Part shown: one piece after another, positions 7,429 to 15,066 of the stretch
Position numbering within the stretch: position 1 is the first letter of the stretch
Layout: every line of letters begins with the position of its first letter
Assembly (NCBI GenBank): GCA_040753815.1
Contig: JBFMDU010000021.1
Span: 172,856-236,855, forward strand
Reading direction: 5' to 3'
DNA length: 64,000 nt
Source of the DNA: Chloroflexota bacterium
GTDB lineage: Bacteria > Chloroflexota > Dehalococcoidia > GIF9 > JBFMDU01
Position numbers and translations under genes: made by a program
Notes under the pieces: model-generated
The model's input: only the letters and a program-made list of their open reading frames with translations
What the model was told of the DNA's origin: nothing
Databases searched by the model: none

Positions 7429-9036
7429 ATGACGACACTTACATTCTACGGTGGCATCAATGAAATCGGGGGAAACAAGATACTCCTTGAGGATGACAAT
7501 CATGTGCTTCTTCTTGATTTCGGATTTCCATACAAGAGGCACAAACTCTTCTACGAAGAGTATCTGAAGCCCAGAAGCGGCGCAGGGCTTCTTGACCCGC
7601 TTACGATGGGATTACTGCCGCTGCTCGAAGGTATCTATAGAGAAGACCTTCAGACAGAGGACCTTTGGGGTGAATTTCGTGGTAGCCCCTTGTACCGCAA
7701 GCTAGACCAAGTGGATGGAATACTCCTATCGCATGCTCATCTTGACCATTCAGGGCACATATCATTTCTCAAGAATAACATCCCCGTTTACTCAACGGCA
7801 GCCACGGCGTTCATAGCGAAGGCCATCCAAGATTCTGGGAAATCTGATTTTGACCAACAGGTGTGCTACTTCAATCCCGCTACCCTTGACTGCCCTACCG
7901 GATGGAAGCAGATGGCTTTCCTTTCTGAGAACGTCGCCAAGCAGCAACGCCAGTTCTGTGTAGCTGACATAGCCCCGGATGACTTGAGCCAGAGTGCGAG
8001 GCAGTTTTGGAGTTCTGGATTTTGGGAGAAGACGCCAAGACAAAAAGAACTAGCTTCCTGCGCTCTGCTAAGCCATACCGGTTGTGCCTTGAACCTGCGT
8101 TGCTTTCCCGTGGACCATTCCATACCTGGCGCCTGTGCCTGGGCAATTGAGACGAGTGCAGGGTGGGTCATCTACAGCGGAGACTTGCGTCTTCACGGTA
8201 AACGAGCTGCACTGACCAGCAGATTCGTCAATGAAGCAAGTGCCCTTCGCCCGCGAGCCCTCATACTAGAAGGCACTAACATAGGGCGGGCAACGAACGT
8301 AGCCGAGCACGAAGTCTATGATAATGCCCTTAGGGCCATCGCAAGTTCCCACGGCCTTGTGATAGCAGATTTTCCCGCTAGAGATGTAGACAGGCTGCTC
8401 ACCTTTCTACAAATTGCGAGGGACACGGGTAAGAAGCTGGCTATACTGTCCAAAGATGCCTATCTCCTGAAGACTATGCGGCTTCTCGAGCAGACCGTCC
8501 CGGATATTGCCACGGACGAAAACGTAGTAATTTACCAAGACACCATTGCGAGCAGGCATCCCAGCCTATGGATGCGCAACCTCTTCCAGGAATATGTCGG
8601 TAAGACCGTCTTGGCAAGTGATGTAAGCTCATCTCAGGACCAGTTTATCCTTTGCTTCAGCTTCTTCGACCTGAATGAACTCCCAAGCATACGTCCGAAA
8701 CCAGGTAGTCTATATTTGTTCAGTTCTAGCGAGCCTCACGATGAAGAGCAAGAGATTGACTTTCGCCGTCTACACAGCTGGCTTGAGCACTTCGAACTCA
8801 AAACGTTCGGACTCCCTACGGAGAAGGATGGTGAGTGGCAGATACCTGATGGGGAAAGAGGATTGCATGCTTCCGGCCATGCCTGTGGCACAGACCTCTT
8901 AAACATCGTCTGGGAAATCAACCCAGGGATTGTAATCCCGATTCATAGCGAGCAACCCCACTTCTACGCCGACCAGTTGGCAGGTAGTGACATTAGAGTC
9001 GTGCTACCGACTCCAGGCAAGCTAATCCAGATTTGA
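7429..9036 (+). CDS. MBL-fold beta-CASP nuclease (RNase J-related, archaeal-like subfamily)
   Basis: GGINEIGGN, LDFG, SHAHLDH, VDHSIPG, YSGDLR, HASGH, PIHSE. Confidence 0.88.
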   Translation: MTTLTFYGGINEIGGNKILLEDDNHVLLLDFGFPYKRHKLFYEEYLKPRSGAGLLDPLTMGLLPLLEGIYREDLQTEDLWGEFRGSPLYRKLDQVDGILLSHAHLDHSGHISFLKNNIPVYSTAATAFIAKAIQDSGKSDFDQQVCYFNPATLDCPTGWKQMAFLSENVAKQQRQFCVADIAPDDLSQSARQFWSSGFWEKTPRQKELASCALLSHTGCALNLRCFPVDHSIPGACAWAIETSAGWVIYSGDLRLHGKRAALTSRFVNEASALRPRALILEGTNIGRATNVAEHEVYDNALRAIASSHGLVIADFPARDVDRLLTFLQIARDTGKKLAILSKDAYLLKTMRLLEQTVPDIATDENVVIYQDTIASRHPSLWMRNLFQEYVGKTVLASDVSSSQDQFILCFSFFDLNELPSIRPKPGSLYLFSSSEPHDEEQEIDFRRLHSWLEHFELKTFGLPTEKDGEWQIPDGERGLHASGHACGTDLLNIVWEINPGIVIPIHSEQPHFYADQLAGSDIRVVLPTPGKLIQI

Positions 9037-11516: not shown

Positions 11517-11535
11517 GAAGGCAGGGCACCCACCC

Positions 11536-11563
11536 AGATTTCTCGCTGGCGCTCGAAATGACA
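11536..11563 (+). repeat. REP-like element (copy C) AGATTTCTCGCTGGCGCTCGAAATGACA
   Basis: Same GATT.CTCG...CTCG.AATGACA frame as 10143-10176. Confidence 0.65.
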
Positions 11564-11571
11564 TAGCGTAT

Positions 11572-11604
11572 AAATAATGAGAAAGCCGCCGTACGGCGGC
11601 TTTC
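11572..11604 (-). terminator. Intrinsic terminator closing the minus-strand non-coding unit
   Basis: GAAAGCCGCC-GTAC-GGCGGCTTTC (11581-11604) then TCATTATTT on the minus strand. Confidence 0.8.
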
Positions 11605-11853
11605 CCTTAACTACCGATTATTTAATTTCGGTTCAGATTACCTGCTCGTCCTCAGCCCTCTTACGGGATTATACCCGAATCAGCCTTTCTCCCTTTCCGG
11701 GAGCAACCGGCTCATTTATCTCGCACGGGCCAAGATACGAGTTCCGGTCGGCCCCGTCTCACCGACGGGGCTCTCTGAATCCACCTGGAGTATACGGTAC
11801 ACGGTCTGTGTGCACCACCTCCTTTCGCCCCGTTTTTTCACCTCCCCACCTCA
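11575..11853 (-). ncRNA. Putative stand-alone structured ncRNA (~280 nt), family not recognised
   Basis: Own promoter and terminator, no credible ORF, at least five hairpins and a long-range closing helix (UUCAGA/UCUGAA). Confidence 0.65.
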
Positions 11854-11859
11854 CGCTAT

Positions 11860-11888
11860 AAGTTACCACACCCCGCCTGATATGTCAA
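11860..11888 (-). promoter_or_regulatory. Promoter of the putative ncRNA
   Basis: TTGACA-17 nt-TAACTT with TG extension. Confidence 0.7.
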
Positions 11889-12075: not shown

Positions 12076-12249
12076 ATGAGACTGCTTAAGATAGCGCTGG
12101 ACAGTGGCCGGCTCGACCTGGCGGCGCACGTCCTGGTTTACGGTCTGGTGATGGCGCATCGCCGTACTTATCGGAAAAGTAATGGCCACAGAAAAGGGCC
12201 CGAAGAGGCGAGGCCGGAAGAGCGAAGCCTTCTACGGCCGCGCACTTGA
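12076..12249 (+). CDS. Small hypothetical protein (57 aa), first gene of the terminase operon
   Basis: GAGGAGG SD and ATG at 12076; amphipathic MRLLKIALDSGRLDLAAHVLVYGLV. Confidence 0.6.
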   Translation: MRLLKIALDSGRLDLAAHVLVYGLVMAHRRTYRKSNGHRKGPEEARPEERSLLRPRT

Positions 12250-12526
12250 TGAATCGGAAAAACTGAAACTCGAGGAAGCACGCCGGGTGGAAGGGCTTGA
12301 TGAGGAAATCGCCGTCCTGCGGGTGAAACTGCGCGAGCTAATCGAGTCCCAGCCGGAAAAAGTCGAGCTATGCCTCACGGCCGCTAACACCATCGCACGG
12401 CTGGTGAGGACACGCTACAACATCTCCAGGGAGCAGAAGAAGTCACTCAAAGAGGCTATCACCAGGGTGCTCACCGAGATTGCGATTCCGGCCGGGGTGA
12501 GCGTGACCAAAGCACTTATTAAATGA
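12182..12526 (+). CDS. Probable terminase small subunit-like protein
   Basis: Basic N-terminus, AFYGRALDE (HGFY-like), helical body; ATGA overlap with the TerL start. Confidence 0.6.
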   Translation: MATEKGPKRRGRKSEAFYGRALDESEKLKLEEARRVEGLDEEIAVLRVKLRELIESQPEKVELCLTAANTIARLVRTRYNISREQKKSLKEAITRVLTEIAIPAGVSVTKALIK

Positions 12527-13857
12527 AGCTTAGGCCGTACCAACTGGAAATAGTGCGGGCGGTAGCCCGGAGCGTCCTGGACAAGCGCGGTACCGCCTTC
12601 ACCGTCGAGATCGCCCGCCAGGGCGGTAAGAACGAGATTTCGGCGCATCTTGAAGTGCTTCTGCTGACGATGTTCATGGTTAAAGGCGGAAGCTCGGTAA
12701 AGTGCTCGCCAACCTTCAAGCCGCAGACTGTTATCTCGATATCGCGCCTGAAACAGCGCCTGGACGACTTCGGCTTCGACGGCATCTGGCAGTCGGAACA
12801 GGGCTACATCATCCGCCTGGGCAATGCCCGCCAGATATTCCTGTCGGCCGAGGAATCGGCCTCAGTCGTCGGCCACACCGCCGACATCCTGCTGGAAATC
12901 GACGAGGCCCAGGACGTAGCCAAGGATAAGTACACGCGGGACTTTCGCCCCATGGCTAGCGCATCCAACGCCACCACCGTCATGTACGGCACGACCTGGG
13001 ACGACCGGACGCTCCTTGAGGAGACCAAACAGGCGAATCTTGAGCTTGAGCGCAAGAACGGCATCAAACGGCACTTCTCTTTTGACTGGCAGGAAGTTGC
13101 CAGATATAACCCGGCCTACGGAGCGTTCGTTGAGACCGAGCGCCAGCGTCTGGGAGAGAATCACCCGCTTTTCCTTACTCAGTACGCCTTGAAGCCCGTC
13201 CGCGGCGGCGGAGGCTTCCTTAACTGCGCCCAGCTAGCCCAGCTTGTCGGAAGCCATCCGCGCCAGGCCCGCCCGTCCAATGGCGCAATCTATGTAGCAG
13301 GCATCGACATCGCCGGTGAGGCCGAGACAAACGAAATAACATCAGGCAGGGACGCCACCGTCATCACCATCGCTAGGGTACAGTCAGGGCAGGCCGGTCT
13401 GGCCGCGGAGGTTGTTGAGCACTACGCCTGGACCGGCAGGAAGCATCCGGAGCTTTACCAGCAGATGGTCGATATCCTCAAGACGTGGAATTGCCGGCAC
13501 ATCCTGGTCGACGCCACGGGCATCGGCGAGCCGGTGGCGTCATTTTTACGTAAGGCGTTAGGCTCCAGGGTTGAGTCGTTTGTTTTTACACAGCAGTCCA
13601 AGAGTGAGCTCGGGTTCGAGTTCTTAGCGGCCGTTAATTCCGGACGTCTCAAGCTGTACCAGCCGGACGGTTCAAAAGAGTACCAGGAATTGATGTTCGA
13701 GCTTGAGCGGGCGCGCTCAGTTTATCGACCGAACCAGACGCTTAACTTTTTCGTTGAGCCGTCAGACGGCCATGATGACTATCTGATGAGCCTGGCTCTG
13801 GCAGTAAAAGCGGCAGAATCATGGGTCCCGAGGCGTGCCTCGGGTGTGGAAGCCTGA
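12523..13857 (+). CDS. Phage terminase large subunit (ATPase plus RNase H-like nuclease)
   Basis: LRPYQ Q-motif, ARQGGKN Walker A, LLEIDEAQ Walker B, YGT coupling motif; nuclease acidic residues in GIDIA, VDATGIG and HDDYLMSLALA. Confidence 0.92.
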   Translation: MKLRPYQLEIVRAVARSVLDKRGTAFTVEIARQGGKNEISAHLEVLLLTMFMVKGGSSVKCSPTFKPQTVISISRLKQRLDDFGFDGIWQSEQGYIIRLGNARQIFLSAEESASVVGHTADILLEIDEAQDVAKDKYTRDFRPMASASNATTVMYGTTWDDRTLLEETKQANLELERKNGIKRHFSFDWQEVARYNPAYGAFVETERQRLGENHPLFLTQYALKPVRGGGGFLNCAQLAQLVGSHPRQARPSNGAIYVAGIDIAGEAETNEITSGRDATVITIARVQSGQAGLAAEVVEHYAWTGRKHPELYQQMVDILKTWNCRHILVDATGIGEPVASFLRKALGSRVESFVFTQQSKSELGFEFLAAVNSGRLKLYQPDGSKEYQELMFELERARSVYRPNQTLNFFVEPSDGHDDYLMSLALAVKAAESWVPRRASGVEA

Positions 13858-13890: not shown

Positions 13891-15066
13891 CTACATAAGG
13901 GTCGGGAGTTGTTTGCCGATATCGTCGAGGTCTTTAAGCTGGGTCTGGGTCTCTTTGGCGCGCTGTTTCTGGGTAGCGACGATGGTGCCGGCCCGCTCGT
14001 AGTATTCGCGGATGGCCTGGACATTGGCAAGCTGTGAGAGGATGACGGTGACATCGATGGAGCTCCGCTCGCCGGGGAAATCGCCACCGCGGATGATAGC
14101 GCCGTCGGTCAGCTCGCGTAGGTAATCACCGAGTCCTTTGACGATGTCAATGGTCATGTCCTTGCCGGGGGCGGCGAGGAGGTACATGGCTTTGCCAGCA
14201 TCACGCGGGTTGCAGGTTATGGAAAGCTCGCTGATGGCGGCATCCATGGTCTGAACGCCCTTGAGGGTCTCGTCTGTCTTGGCGCGGAACTGTCGGGTGG
14301 AGCGCCATGGGAGGCGCAGAGTCGGCACATCACTGCGGCCGACACCGATGGCCGTCCAGCCCTCAAGCGTCTGCATGATATCGCCAGCATCCACTACTTT
14401 GGCGCCGACATGCTTTATCTTGGTCACCTCGCCGGCGCAGAGTAAGTCATAGAACGGCTCGGCAATTTGCTTGTTAATCTTGTCCAGGTTGTTGGCCAGG
14501 CTGGCATCTTTACGGACGTAGCGCTGGTTGTCGGCGAGGAAGACGGCATCGGCGACCTGTTTGATGCTCTTGAGACAGGTGGCGGCGTTGTAAACGGTGC
14601 GGACTTCGGTAGCTTGCTCATGTTCGAAGGGGAGGACGCAGAGAGCATAGAGCGGCTTGCCAACATAGCGGTCTTTAATCATCTGAGCGATGACAGAGAT
14701 GGACCCGGAACCGGTGCCGCCGCCGGCGCCGGCAATCAGAAGGAAGGAGTGGGTCTCATAGAAGCGTGGGGCGGCACGGATGGCATCGACAACTTTATCT
14801 CCATCCTCGCGGGCAAGCTCGGCGCCGACTTCGTTGATTTTGCCGACCCCATGCCCGCCAGTCTTGCGGGCGCCGATAAGGATGCGGTGCATGTAGTCAG
14901 ATTGAATGTAGGTAAGGCCGGTGAGGTCAGTCTTATCGCTGTTGACGGCGTAAGCGCCGGTGAGAATGGTGACGTTGCGTTCGGCTTTAGCCTGGCGGGC
15001 CATCCGGGCTAACTGGTCAGCAATACGACAGCCGCATTGACCCAACCCGATTACGAGTAACTTCAT
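13891..15066 (-). CDS. Tubulin/FtsZ-superfamily GTPase, CetZ-like
   Basis: IGLGQCGCRIAD, GHGVG, GGGTGSG, VLPF..E, ADNQ, VVDAGDIMQTL in place of the FtsZ NxDFAD T7 loop. Confidence 0.88.
   Translation of the reverse strand: MKLLVIGLGQCGCRIADQLARMARQAKAERNVTILTGAYAVNSDKTDLTGLTYIQSDYMHRILIGARKTGGHGVGKINEVGAELAREDGDKVVDAIRAAPRFYETHSFLLIAGAGGGTGSGSISVIAQMIKDRYVGKPLYALCVLPFEHEQATEVRTVYNAATCLKSIKQVADAVFLADNQRYVRKDASLANNLDKINKQIAEPFYDLLCAGEVTKIKHVGAKVVDAGDIMQTLEGWTAIGVGRSDVPTLRLPWRSTRQFRAKTDETLKGVQTMDAAISELSITCNPRDAGKAMYLLAAPGKDMTIDIVKGLGDYLRELTDGAIIRGGDFPGERSSIDVTVILSQLANVQAIREYYERAGTIVATQKQRAKETQTQLKDLDDIGKQLPTLM

Follow-up and report, generated by a model that had tools for sequence, protein, structure and literature searches.

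TnaC is a short arrest peptide that acts at the stop codon. PepNL, a 14-residue peptide of Escherichia coli, stalls at its UGA stop codon and blocks release factor 2 (RF2), and the block is relieved when Trp-tRNA reads through the stop (PMC11890864, excerpts). Very small open reading frames (ORFs) are also carried by bacterial dual-function RNAs such as SgrS/SgrT, Spot 42/SpfP, AzuCR and VcdRP, which act by short base-pairing seeds, usually with Hfq (PMC12612679, PMC12310071, PMC8916003, PMC8915982, PMC8672173, excerpts). Leader-peptide transcription attenuators and the upstream ORF (uORF) motifs known from comparative genomics, such as the ilvB and fthC candidates, combine a Shine-Dalgarno sequence (SD) and a short conserved ORF with hairpins, one of which contains or borders the stop codon, and an intrinsic terminator; the study of those candidates defines a uORF by, among other things, a consistent downstream gene (PMC11109978). 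Here we analyse an element on the minus strand, at about positions 11570-11888, of a 64,000-nucleotide (nt) stretch of contig JBFMDU010000021.1 from a Chloroflexota bacterium of the class Dehalococcoidia (genome G000); this whole stretch is called the window below. The element belongs to a family that resembles dual-function small RNAs, arrest-peptide uORFs and attenuators, but fails a defining feature of each where one is testable.

Almost nothing is known of RNA biology in the Dehalococcoidia, which are abundant and for the most part uncultured; the family provides a well-defined RNA candidate with about 80 examples. Its architecture is unusual: a tightly conserved mini-ORF runs up to an invariant hairpin, a folded domain comes next, and there is no gene for the unit to regulate. 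A preliminary description of the locus had proposed a structured RNA gene, so far unrecognised, that has a promoter and a terminator of its own, and that proposal is supported: the family is uncatalogued, lies outside Rfam 15 and is almost confined to the Dehalococcoidia. No description of the element was found in the literature, supplementary files being outside the scope of the search and the available part of a 50-genome survey of non-coding RNAs (PMC11109978) being within it; for Dehalococcoides, that part reports only an rdhA motif. We regard it as somewhat probable that the window element is a diverged member of a group of free-standing units of about 250-300 nt that would work as translation-coupled or dual-function RNAs.

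Results and Discussion

A family of elements in the Dehalococcoidia

The element is real by both sequence and fold. Its 286-nt RNA folds at -111.9 kcal/mol (z -4.78), as good a fold was reached by none of 200 shuffled sequences, and a single copy is present in its own 2.0-Mb genome. Rfam 15 gave no match at gathering scores across the whole window, and a local search at permissive E-values reached at best 18.7 bits against a 49-bit threshold, with matches mostly on the terminator hairpin.

In a DNA search of 60 relatives, the only match (89% identity) was in G001, a genome of the same genus, where the element is bordered, as in the window, by the divergent small ORF on one side and the major facilitator superfamily (MFS) gene on the other. 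The elements themselves are 94% identical between the two genomes, and the flanking proteins 83-89%. A covariance model made from these two sequences (R1) gave weak matches in three other genomes of the order; two of these, from different families, are strongly alike, with folds of their own at z -5.97 and -3.50. The relatives L007-L009 had no match in Rfam 15 at E up to 1. The second model (R2) found one copy each in 16 of 151 genomes of the order, at E 3e-48 to 3e-7 and in 13 of 48 genera. The third and better-populated model (R3, 64 sequences) raised this to 18 of 151, which indicates that the patchiness is real and is not a problem of sensitivity. With R3 the window copy scores 72.7 bits and is thus a true family member. 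In the class sample R2 matched 17 of 151 genomes, G000 counted, and in the phylum sample 2 of 151, these being G000 and one genome outside the class, confirmed as L156. In the phylum sample R2 matched none of the seven members of family f50, of which six are listed as assemblies of one contig; we take this family, as a guess, to comprise the cultured dehalogenating genera. Copy number was one in every genome searched with the covariance models, and the element is a vertically inherited but patchy accessory gene.

More members were collected with a sequence pattern that spans the conserved end of the ORF and the foot of the adjoining hairpin, P2, and that fixes the W-Q-V-D codons and the 5' arm of P2. 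It occurs in at least 120 places in the named species collection, and almost every match listed has Dehalococcoidia, Dehalococcoidales, Dehalococcoidaceae or Chloroflexota in its title. Of the 80 pattern loci among the matches listed, 65 were confirmed by R2. The 15 unconfirmed loci comprise four from other phyla, ten that have the ORF and P2 with a differently shaped 3' region, and one coding sequence. The four matches outside the Chloroflexota (L038, L050, L083 and L088) look like chance; the absence of R2 matches among them (0/4) agrees with a hand estimate of about nine chance matches.

One subgroup (L042, L066, L078, L108, L157 and others) keeps the small ORF, P2 and the terminator, and its 3' region is unmatched by R2; the 3' domain may have been remodelled or replaced there in evolution. 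Among 2.9 million viral contigs the pattern was found in one place, L157, a 2189-nt IMG/VR contig that carries at 278-319 on the minus strand a GC-rich subgroup member, MTNRIRWGIWQVDT, with P2 and a terminator and with no R2 match; the contig is too short to judge whether it is truly viral. One Dehalococcoidia metagenome-assembled genome (contigs L036, L067 and L113) holds three model-confirmed copies, whose small ORFs have the N-termini MTLLKWYGVWQVDL, MNLQALYGVWQVDE and MTIQKLYGVWQVDL.

A 14-codon reading frame ends at the foot of a hairpin

All members outside the group f1 carry a GGAGGUG ribosome-binding site (RBS) followed, after 4-6 nt, by a start codon and a short ORF. In the 75 unique sequences with a recognisable start, on which the ORF counts rest, the start codon is ATG in 61, GTG in 10 and TTG in 4, with an SD upstream of each, and the ORF is exactly 14 codons long in 44 and 12-16 codons long in 53. 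The consensus is M-[KR]-L-[HQ]-x-[LIV]-[FYL]-G-V-W-Q-V-D-x-stop, with a nearly invariant C-terminal G-V-W-Q-V-D-x-stop, and the GC-rich subgroup reads M-x-x-D-R-[VI]-R-W-G-V-W-Q-V-D-x. A stop codon follows Q-V-D-x in 55 sequences (UGA 40, UAG 8, UAA 7); eight members have UGG at that position.

The Gly and Val codons ahead of W-Q-V-D are not part of the search pattern, and their entropies at codon positions 1, 2 and 3 are 0.34, 0 and 1.19 (Gly) and 0.24, 0.10 and 1.92 (Val); the 14 members found by model show the same third-position variation. Because these unfixed codons vary almost only at the third position, the variation is a coding signature. The preliminary description had taken the RNA to be purely non-coding, which is not supported in the family: its purine-rich 5' end is the RBS of the conserved 14-codon ORF. 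A conserved, translated small ORF had been named there as an observation that would speak against its reading. A conserved ORF does exist, and it explains conservation of the 5' region only, not the covarying 3' domain.

The position of the stop codon is constrained as well. In 55 of 77 unique loci it ends 1 nt before the first G of P2, and in 12 others it falls within the P2 loop or close to it (offsets -11 to -14), so a terminating ribosome must have melted P2. A constraint at the level of RNA inside the ORF follows from codon 3, where Leu is encoded by CUU in 58 of 61 cases, the other Leu position using all codons. RNAalifold over 53 5' regions showed nothing but an invariant pairing of this CUUC with the SD (GAGG), open to 52-53 of the 53 sequences and without covariation, and the pairing together with the CUU bias is suggestive. 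In many members the 5' leader begins with AGAAGCU, GCUUCG directly precedes the SD and a second GCUUC occupies codons 2-4, with a conserved CYGARU between them. Two such copies competing for one GAAGC could form a translational switch. The idea that the UGA encodes selenocysteine ahead of a SECIS hairpin was dropped, as conservation of the frame ends at the UGA and the loop of P2 is variable (the selenocysteine machinery was not searched for).

The 3' domain is conserved mainly as base pairs

In the alignment of the 16 sequences found by model, 87.9% of cells in the modelled helices are paired, as compared to 67.4% in shuffles, with none of 500 shuffles as high. Partners slid out of register pair at most 43%, and 51 of 55 pairs have changed on both sides. 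The 65 sequences found by pattern show 84.6% pairing against 68.6% in shuffles. P2 is the most conserved RNA element of the family, paired at 96.1% and 97.5% in the two sets (16 and 65 sequences) and with an invariant foot, GCCC/GGGC. The long helix P3, of 14 base pairs (bp), is paired at 96.3% and 92.6%, with both-side changes in 14 and 12 pairs, and the hairpin P5 at 95.3% and 93.8%, where all four pairs covary. Pairing is 69-92% in the family helices 8-10 of the P4 region (85-91% in the P4 core) and 80.6-91.4% in the small hairpin P6. The closing helix P1, at 68-71% and with many gaps, has moderate support. Outside the ORF and P2 there are few conserved nucleotides, and P3-P5 are conserved mainly as pairs; the covariation of P2-P5 is the sign of selection on the RNA. 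Overall, covariation lends support to P2, P3 and two inner hairpins.

One helix of the preliminary description is lost in this comparison. A long bulged arm, GACCGG-CUCGU-AUCUUG with CGAGAU-AUGAG-CCGGUU, had been drawn, but 2 of its 17 pairs are broken in G001 with none compensated, and across 64 family members 48.4% of its cells are paired against 46.3% in shuffles; the strands instead form a helix with 11658-11640, which is P3.

The window element is a diverged member

All features of the window copy lie on the minus strand. The promoter (11860-11888) has a -35 TTGACA at 11888-11883, a 17-nt spacer and a -10 TAACTT at 11865-11860. The -10 box matches the consensus at 3 of 6 positions, for which reason the promoter scan did not list it; in G001 the same place holds TTGACA-17-TATTAT, with a better -10. 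From the promoter position, the transcript should start near 11854-11852. The purine-rich 5' leader (11816-11852) contains three SD-like GAGGUG/GGAGGUG copies and is homologous to the single GGAGGUG RBS of the family. It runs into a 5' hairpin (11787-11822), GGAG-GU-GGUGCAC...GUGUACC-GUAUA-CUCC, in which GGAG (11822-11819) pairs with CUCC (11790-11787), so that the second SD-like GGAG is sequestered; in G001 this hairpin is invariant except for one C-G to U-G change. The promoter, the repeated GAGGUG and the GGAG...CUCC hairpin are all as first described.

The 3' domain is closed by P1 (UCAGA/UCUGA, 11774-11778 with 11633-11637), at the place of the closing helix first reported. Within it, P2 (11751-11771) has 8 bp, GCCCCGUC and GACGGGGC, around a GGUGA loop. 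Both hairpin and loop had been noted before; the helix is conserved in the family, and neither the GGUGA loop nor the AGAGA stretch is, the loop being GAUGA already in G001. A 7-nt repeat of the P2 3' arm, ACGGGGC, occurs upstream in the window. P3 joins 11727-11748 (ACC..CUCGU.UCUUGGCCC) to 11640-11658 (GGGCUGAGGACGAG..GGU), and it holds both of the compensatory pairs (A-U to G-C and U-A to C-G) that separate G000 from G001 in the minimum-energy fold. A three-way junction contains the P4 arm (11678-11716), of variable length in the family, which includes the CUCCC-GGAAA-GGGAG hairpin reported earlier, and the P5 hairpin (11664-11677), CGGG-UAUAAU-CCCG. P6 (11613-11632), ACCGA...UCGGU, is conserved in position and not in sequence. 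The intrinsic terminator (11570-11606), also part of the preliminary description, consists of a 12-bp stem (11606-11579) and an interrupted U-rich tail.

The peptide has fared differently from the RNA. In the window, Q-V-D lies at 11787-11779, and codons 14-21, V-Y-R-I-L-Q-V-D, align in frame with the family's [LIV]-[FYL]-G-V-W-Q-V-D. There is no stop after Q-V-D; the frame runs for 41 codons (11716-11841), from a GUG at 11841 to a UAA at 11718-11716, and neither of the two GGAGGUG copies is followed by a start codon at the family spacing. The change of W to L and the long frame recur in L032 and L033. The frame is open in G001, with three synonymous and three non-synonymous changes by hand count, and the changes of relatives downstream of Q-V-D are non-synonymous and keep the helices. 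In a close relative from run X3 the 41-codon frame is shifted by one additional A in the A-run (one contig of depth 2.5, in a homopolymer, and possibly an error). This shift and the decay of start and motif make translation of the window ORF doubtful. Its RNA domain is clearly under selection, and the element of the window genus probably acts mainly as RNA, with a degraded peptide motif (R-I-L for G-V-W). A metatranscriptome contig of 170 nt covers 11655-11824 with four differences, and nothing credible was found on the flanks; every sequencing run yielded a small share, and parts of the window left uncovered are not evidence. The habitat labels (hot spring, sediment and lake) are those of relatives and not of the window strain.

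The units stand free of their neighbours

Promoters and terminators recur throughout the family. In 70 of the 71 loci that could be evaluated, the ORF start is preceded at a constant distance by a predicted promoter, almost always with TTGACA, that matches at 9 or more of 12 positions. A strict rule of hairpin plus U-run is satisfied by the terminators of 59 of 77 unique loci; most of the other 18 show by eye the same hairpin with an interrupted AUUAUUUAU-type U tail, as in the window. From these predicted borders the unit has a median length of 262 nt (range 249-305 nt).

Gene context was counted over 81 rows, which include four places twice. The gene closest downstream is convergent with the element in 36 rows and co-directional with it in 39, and 6 rows have none. 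The commonest neighbours, under putative names from our reading of their sequences, are Rpe-like (18 loci), SDR-like (11) and PyrE-like (6), and they reflect synteny within sublineages. The terminase large subunit (TerL) gene, the two small ORFs upstream of it and the MFS gene occur beside the G000 and G001 copies only and at none of the 79 other rows. The varied neighbours, and the restriction of TerL and MFS to the window genus, indicate a free-standing gene that is neither part of a phage nor a gene-specific leader. A proposed link to the packaging genes terS-terL therefore falls, TerL being absent elsewhere and the pattern present in a single place among the viral contigs. The earlier statement that the element is not simply the leader of the MFS gene is borne out: that gene occurs at no other family locus and has a promoter of its own (11516-11488, TTGACA-17-TATTGT), separate from that of the element and conserved in G001. 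The spacer between the element terminator and the MFS promoter (11521-11575) is interrupted by a 49-nt gap in G001, and 55 nt of it are skipped in a relative from run X4; it is dispensable.

Translation termination as the likely point of action

The tightest constraint falls on the C-terminal residues of the peptide, on where the stop lies and on the P2 foot, which points to an event at translation termination. In the typical predicted order, a near-consensus sigma-70 promoter is followed by a leader of about 45 nt, the GGAGGUG RBS, the 14-codon ORF, P2, P3 with P4 and P5 inside it, and the terminator. A ribosome finishing the small ORF would have to melt P2, the invariant tail of the nascent peptide may slow or arrest termination in the manner of short arrest peptides, and it would then depend on translation whether the 3' RNA domain folds, is stable or is active. 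It is because there is no target in cis that gating of the 3' domain itself, or a dual-function RNA, is proposed. In the window genus the properly spaced start is gone and the frame extends to 41 codons, the RNA helices being kept by compensation. The preliminary idea that the RNA deals with ribosomes survives in this changed form, by way of small-ORF translation; its T-box-like part does not.

The arrest-like action we infer by analogy with PepNL. As far as the available portion of that report goes (PMC11890864), both peptides have about 14 residues with conservation strongest beside a stop codon, in the family mostly UGA (40 of 55). Eight family members have UGG at the stop position, and the PepNL UGA is read by Trp-tRNA. 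Asp is the second-to-last residue in the family, and in the PepNL complex tRNA-Asp occupies the P site. The two differ in that they share no sequence similarity and that the family, in which stalling is presumed, has no regulated downstream gene. With the dual-function RNAs the family shares a short independent transcript, here a predicted one, with its own promoter and terminator, and a very small ORF beside separately selected RNA; 14 codons in the Dehalococcoidia compare with 15 in Spot 42. Those RNAs act by short seeds, whereas the family has a multi-helix domain of about 130 nt with no conserved single-stranded seed. A further difference is that its ORF stops right at the base of a conserved hairpin. 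If the mini-ORF is an arrest peptide, the family would represent nascent-peptide sensing with an RNA as the output in place of a downstream gene; if not, it would still be a new dual-function RNA or small-protein family that merits a place in Rfam and in small-protein catalogues.

A further step, possible but doubtful in our estimate, is a stand-alone ribosome-gated RNA in which a 14-residue nascent peptide (G-V-W-Q-V-D-x) would stall or delay termination at a stop codon 1 nt ahead of the invariant hairpin, and the state of translation would decide whether a trans-acting domain folds. The cue might be the availability of RF2 or Trp-tRNA, or a small molecule in the exit tunnel. The RNA would then be a sensor without a cis-regulated gene, and in the window genus the peptide would have decayed and the RNA become autonomous.

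Several observations weigh against an RNA that is translation-coupled or has a dual function. A regulated gene normally lies downstream of an arrest peptide, and here there is none. For 65 of the 81 sequences, the W-Q-V-D codons and the P2 5' arm were fixed by the pattern used to choose them, so the conservation of both elements in that set is partly built in, and the covariation counts use model-fitted alignments, which favours the model. A 3' domain with so few conserved unpaired nucleotides could be a mere stabiliser. An attenuator-like switch, in which the W-Q codons would pair with the P2 5' arm and for which the ACGGGGC repeat of the window was also considered, was set aside, as CAA breaks the pairing in 18 of 75 members. 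The mechanism may not apply to the window locus at all, given the absence of a canonical start and of G-V-W and the frame shift in run X3. The 170-nt metatranscriptome contig is a weak hint of expression, its depth being low, and could be DNA carry-over.

The rival with most to recommend it, though we think it rather unlikely, is a gene for a small protein and nothing more, with the 14-residue peptide as the effector and P2-P5 and the terminator as a stabilising 3' untranslated region. The strong promoter and SD and the conservation of the peptide over the whole ORF fit it well, as does a 3' domain kept in shape and hardly in sequence; the divergent subgroups retain the ORF and P2 beside a differently shaped 3' region, and tiny functional proteins borne on small RNAs are known, such as the 15-residue SpfP (PMC8916003, excerpts). 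A stabiliser, however, needs neither an invariant P2 nor a fixed 1-nt spacing to the stop (55/77 loci). The window genus compensates its RNA helices while its peptide motif decays, and the CUU preference at codon 3 (58/61) is a constraint on RNA inside the ORF. More remote is a cis-acting leader or attenuator, in which translation of the small ORF would control read-through of the terminator into the downstream gene, here MFS. The layout of leader ORF, structures and terminator is alike, and a co-directional gene follows in 39 of 81 rows, with Rpe-like genes at 18 loci and PyrE-like genes at 6. Against this, the downstream gene is convergent in 36 rows and missing in 6, whereas the uORF definition in the available part of PMC11109978 calls for a consistent one, and about half of the family fails it by orientation. 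Different lineages have unrelated genes downstream, the MFS gene has a conserved promoter of its own beyond a spacer that tolerates the 49-nt gap and the 55-nt skip, and no conserved antiterminator pairing or other alternative to the terminator was found in the family. Unlike the peptides of attenuators, that of the family is not enriched in one amino acid, and a large structured domain separates its ORF from the terminator. All this makes an attenuator improbable.

Two further possibilities carry very little weight. A purely non-coding trans-acting RNA would bind tRNA through a T-box-like double T-loop, as the preliminary description had suggested, or would serve the packaging genes. Translation is indeed doubtful in the window lineage, where the RNA may act untranslated, and G000 has the AGAGA stretch and GGUGA loop that recall T-box stem I. 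These motifs are not conserved in relatives or the family, the loop already differing in G001, and a T-box search gave no match at E up to 10, nor Rfam any. The element has no specifier loop and no T-box antiterminator, and its varied downstream genes include no aminoacyl-tRNA synthetase or amino-acid gene. With terminase at none of the 79 other rows, the one place in the viral collection and the clear coding pattern of the 5' region in the family, we consider this account very unlikely. A ligand-binding, riboswitch-like aptamer in an unusual position seems scarcely plausible either. It would explain a three-way junction with strong covariation, but conservation resides mainly in the ORF and P2 and is poor in the nucleotides of the junction and loops, no neighbour is consistent, and the domain sits after an ORF and not before one.

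Genes around the window element

The terminase-like and MFS genes of the window are unrelated neighbours of the element. The downstream gene matches Pfam MFS_1. On the other side, in the region 12076-13857 of the plus strand, a 57-codon ORF and an overlapping 114-codon ORF, neither with a family match, precede a gene like that of the terminase large subunit (12523-13857; Pfam Terminase_6C and PHROG terminase matches). A CetZ/tubulin-like gene (13891-15066, minus strand) follows directly, and the next two genes have no phage match. The trio is conserved in G001, and the terminase gene looks like an orphan and not like a prophage. Farther off, at 7429-9036 on the plus strand, a 535-residue protein with metallo-beta-lactamase and RMMBL domains has what we read as the architecture of a putative RNase J/CPSF-type ribonuclease.

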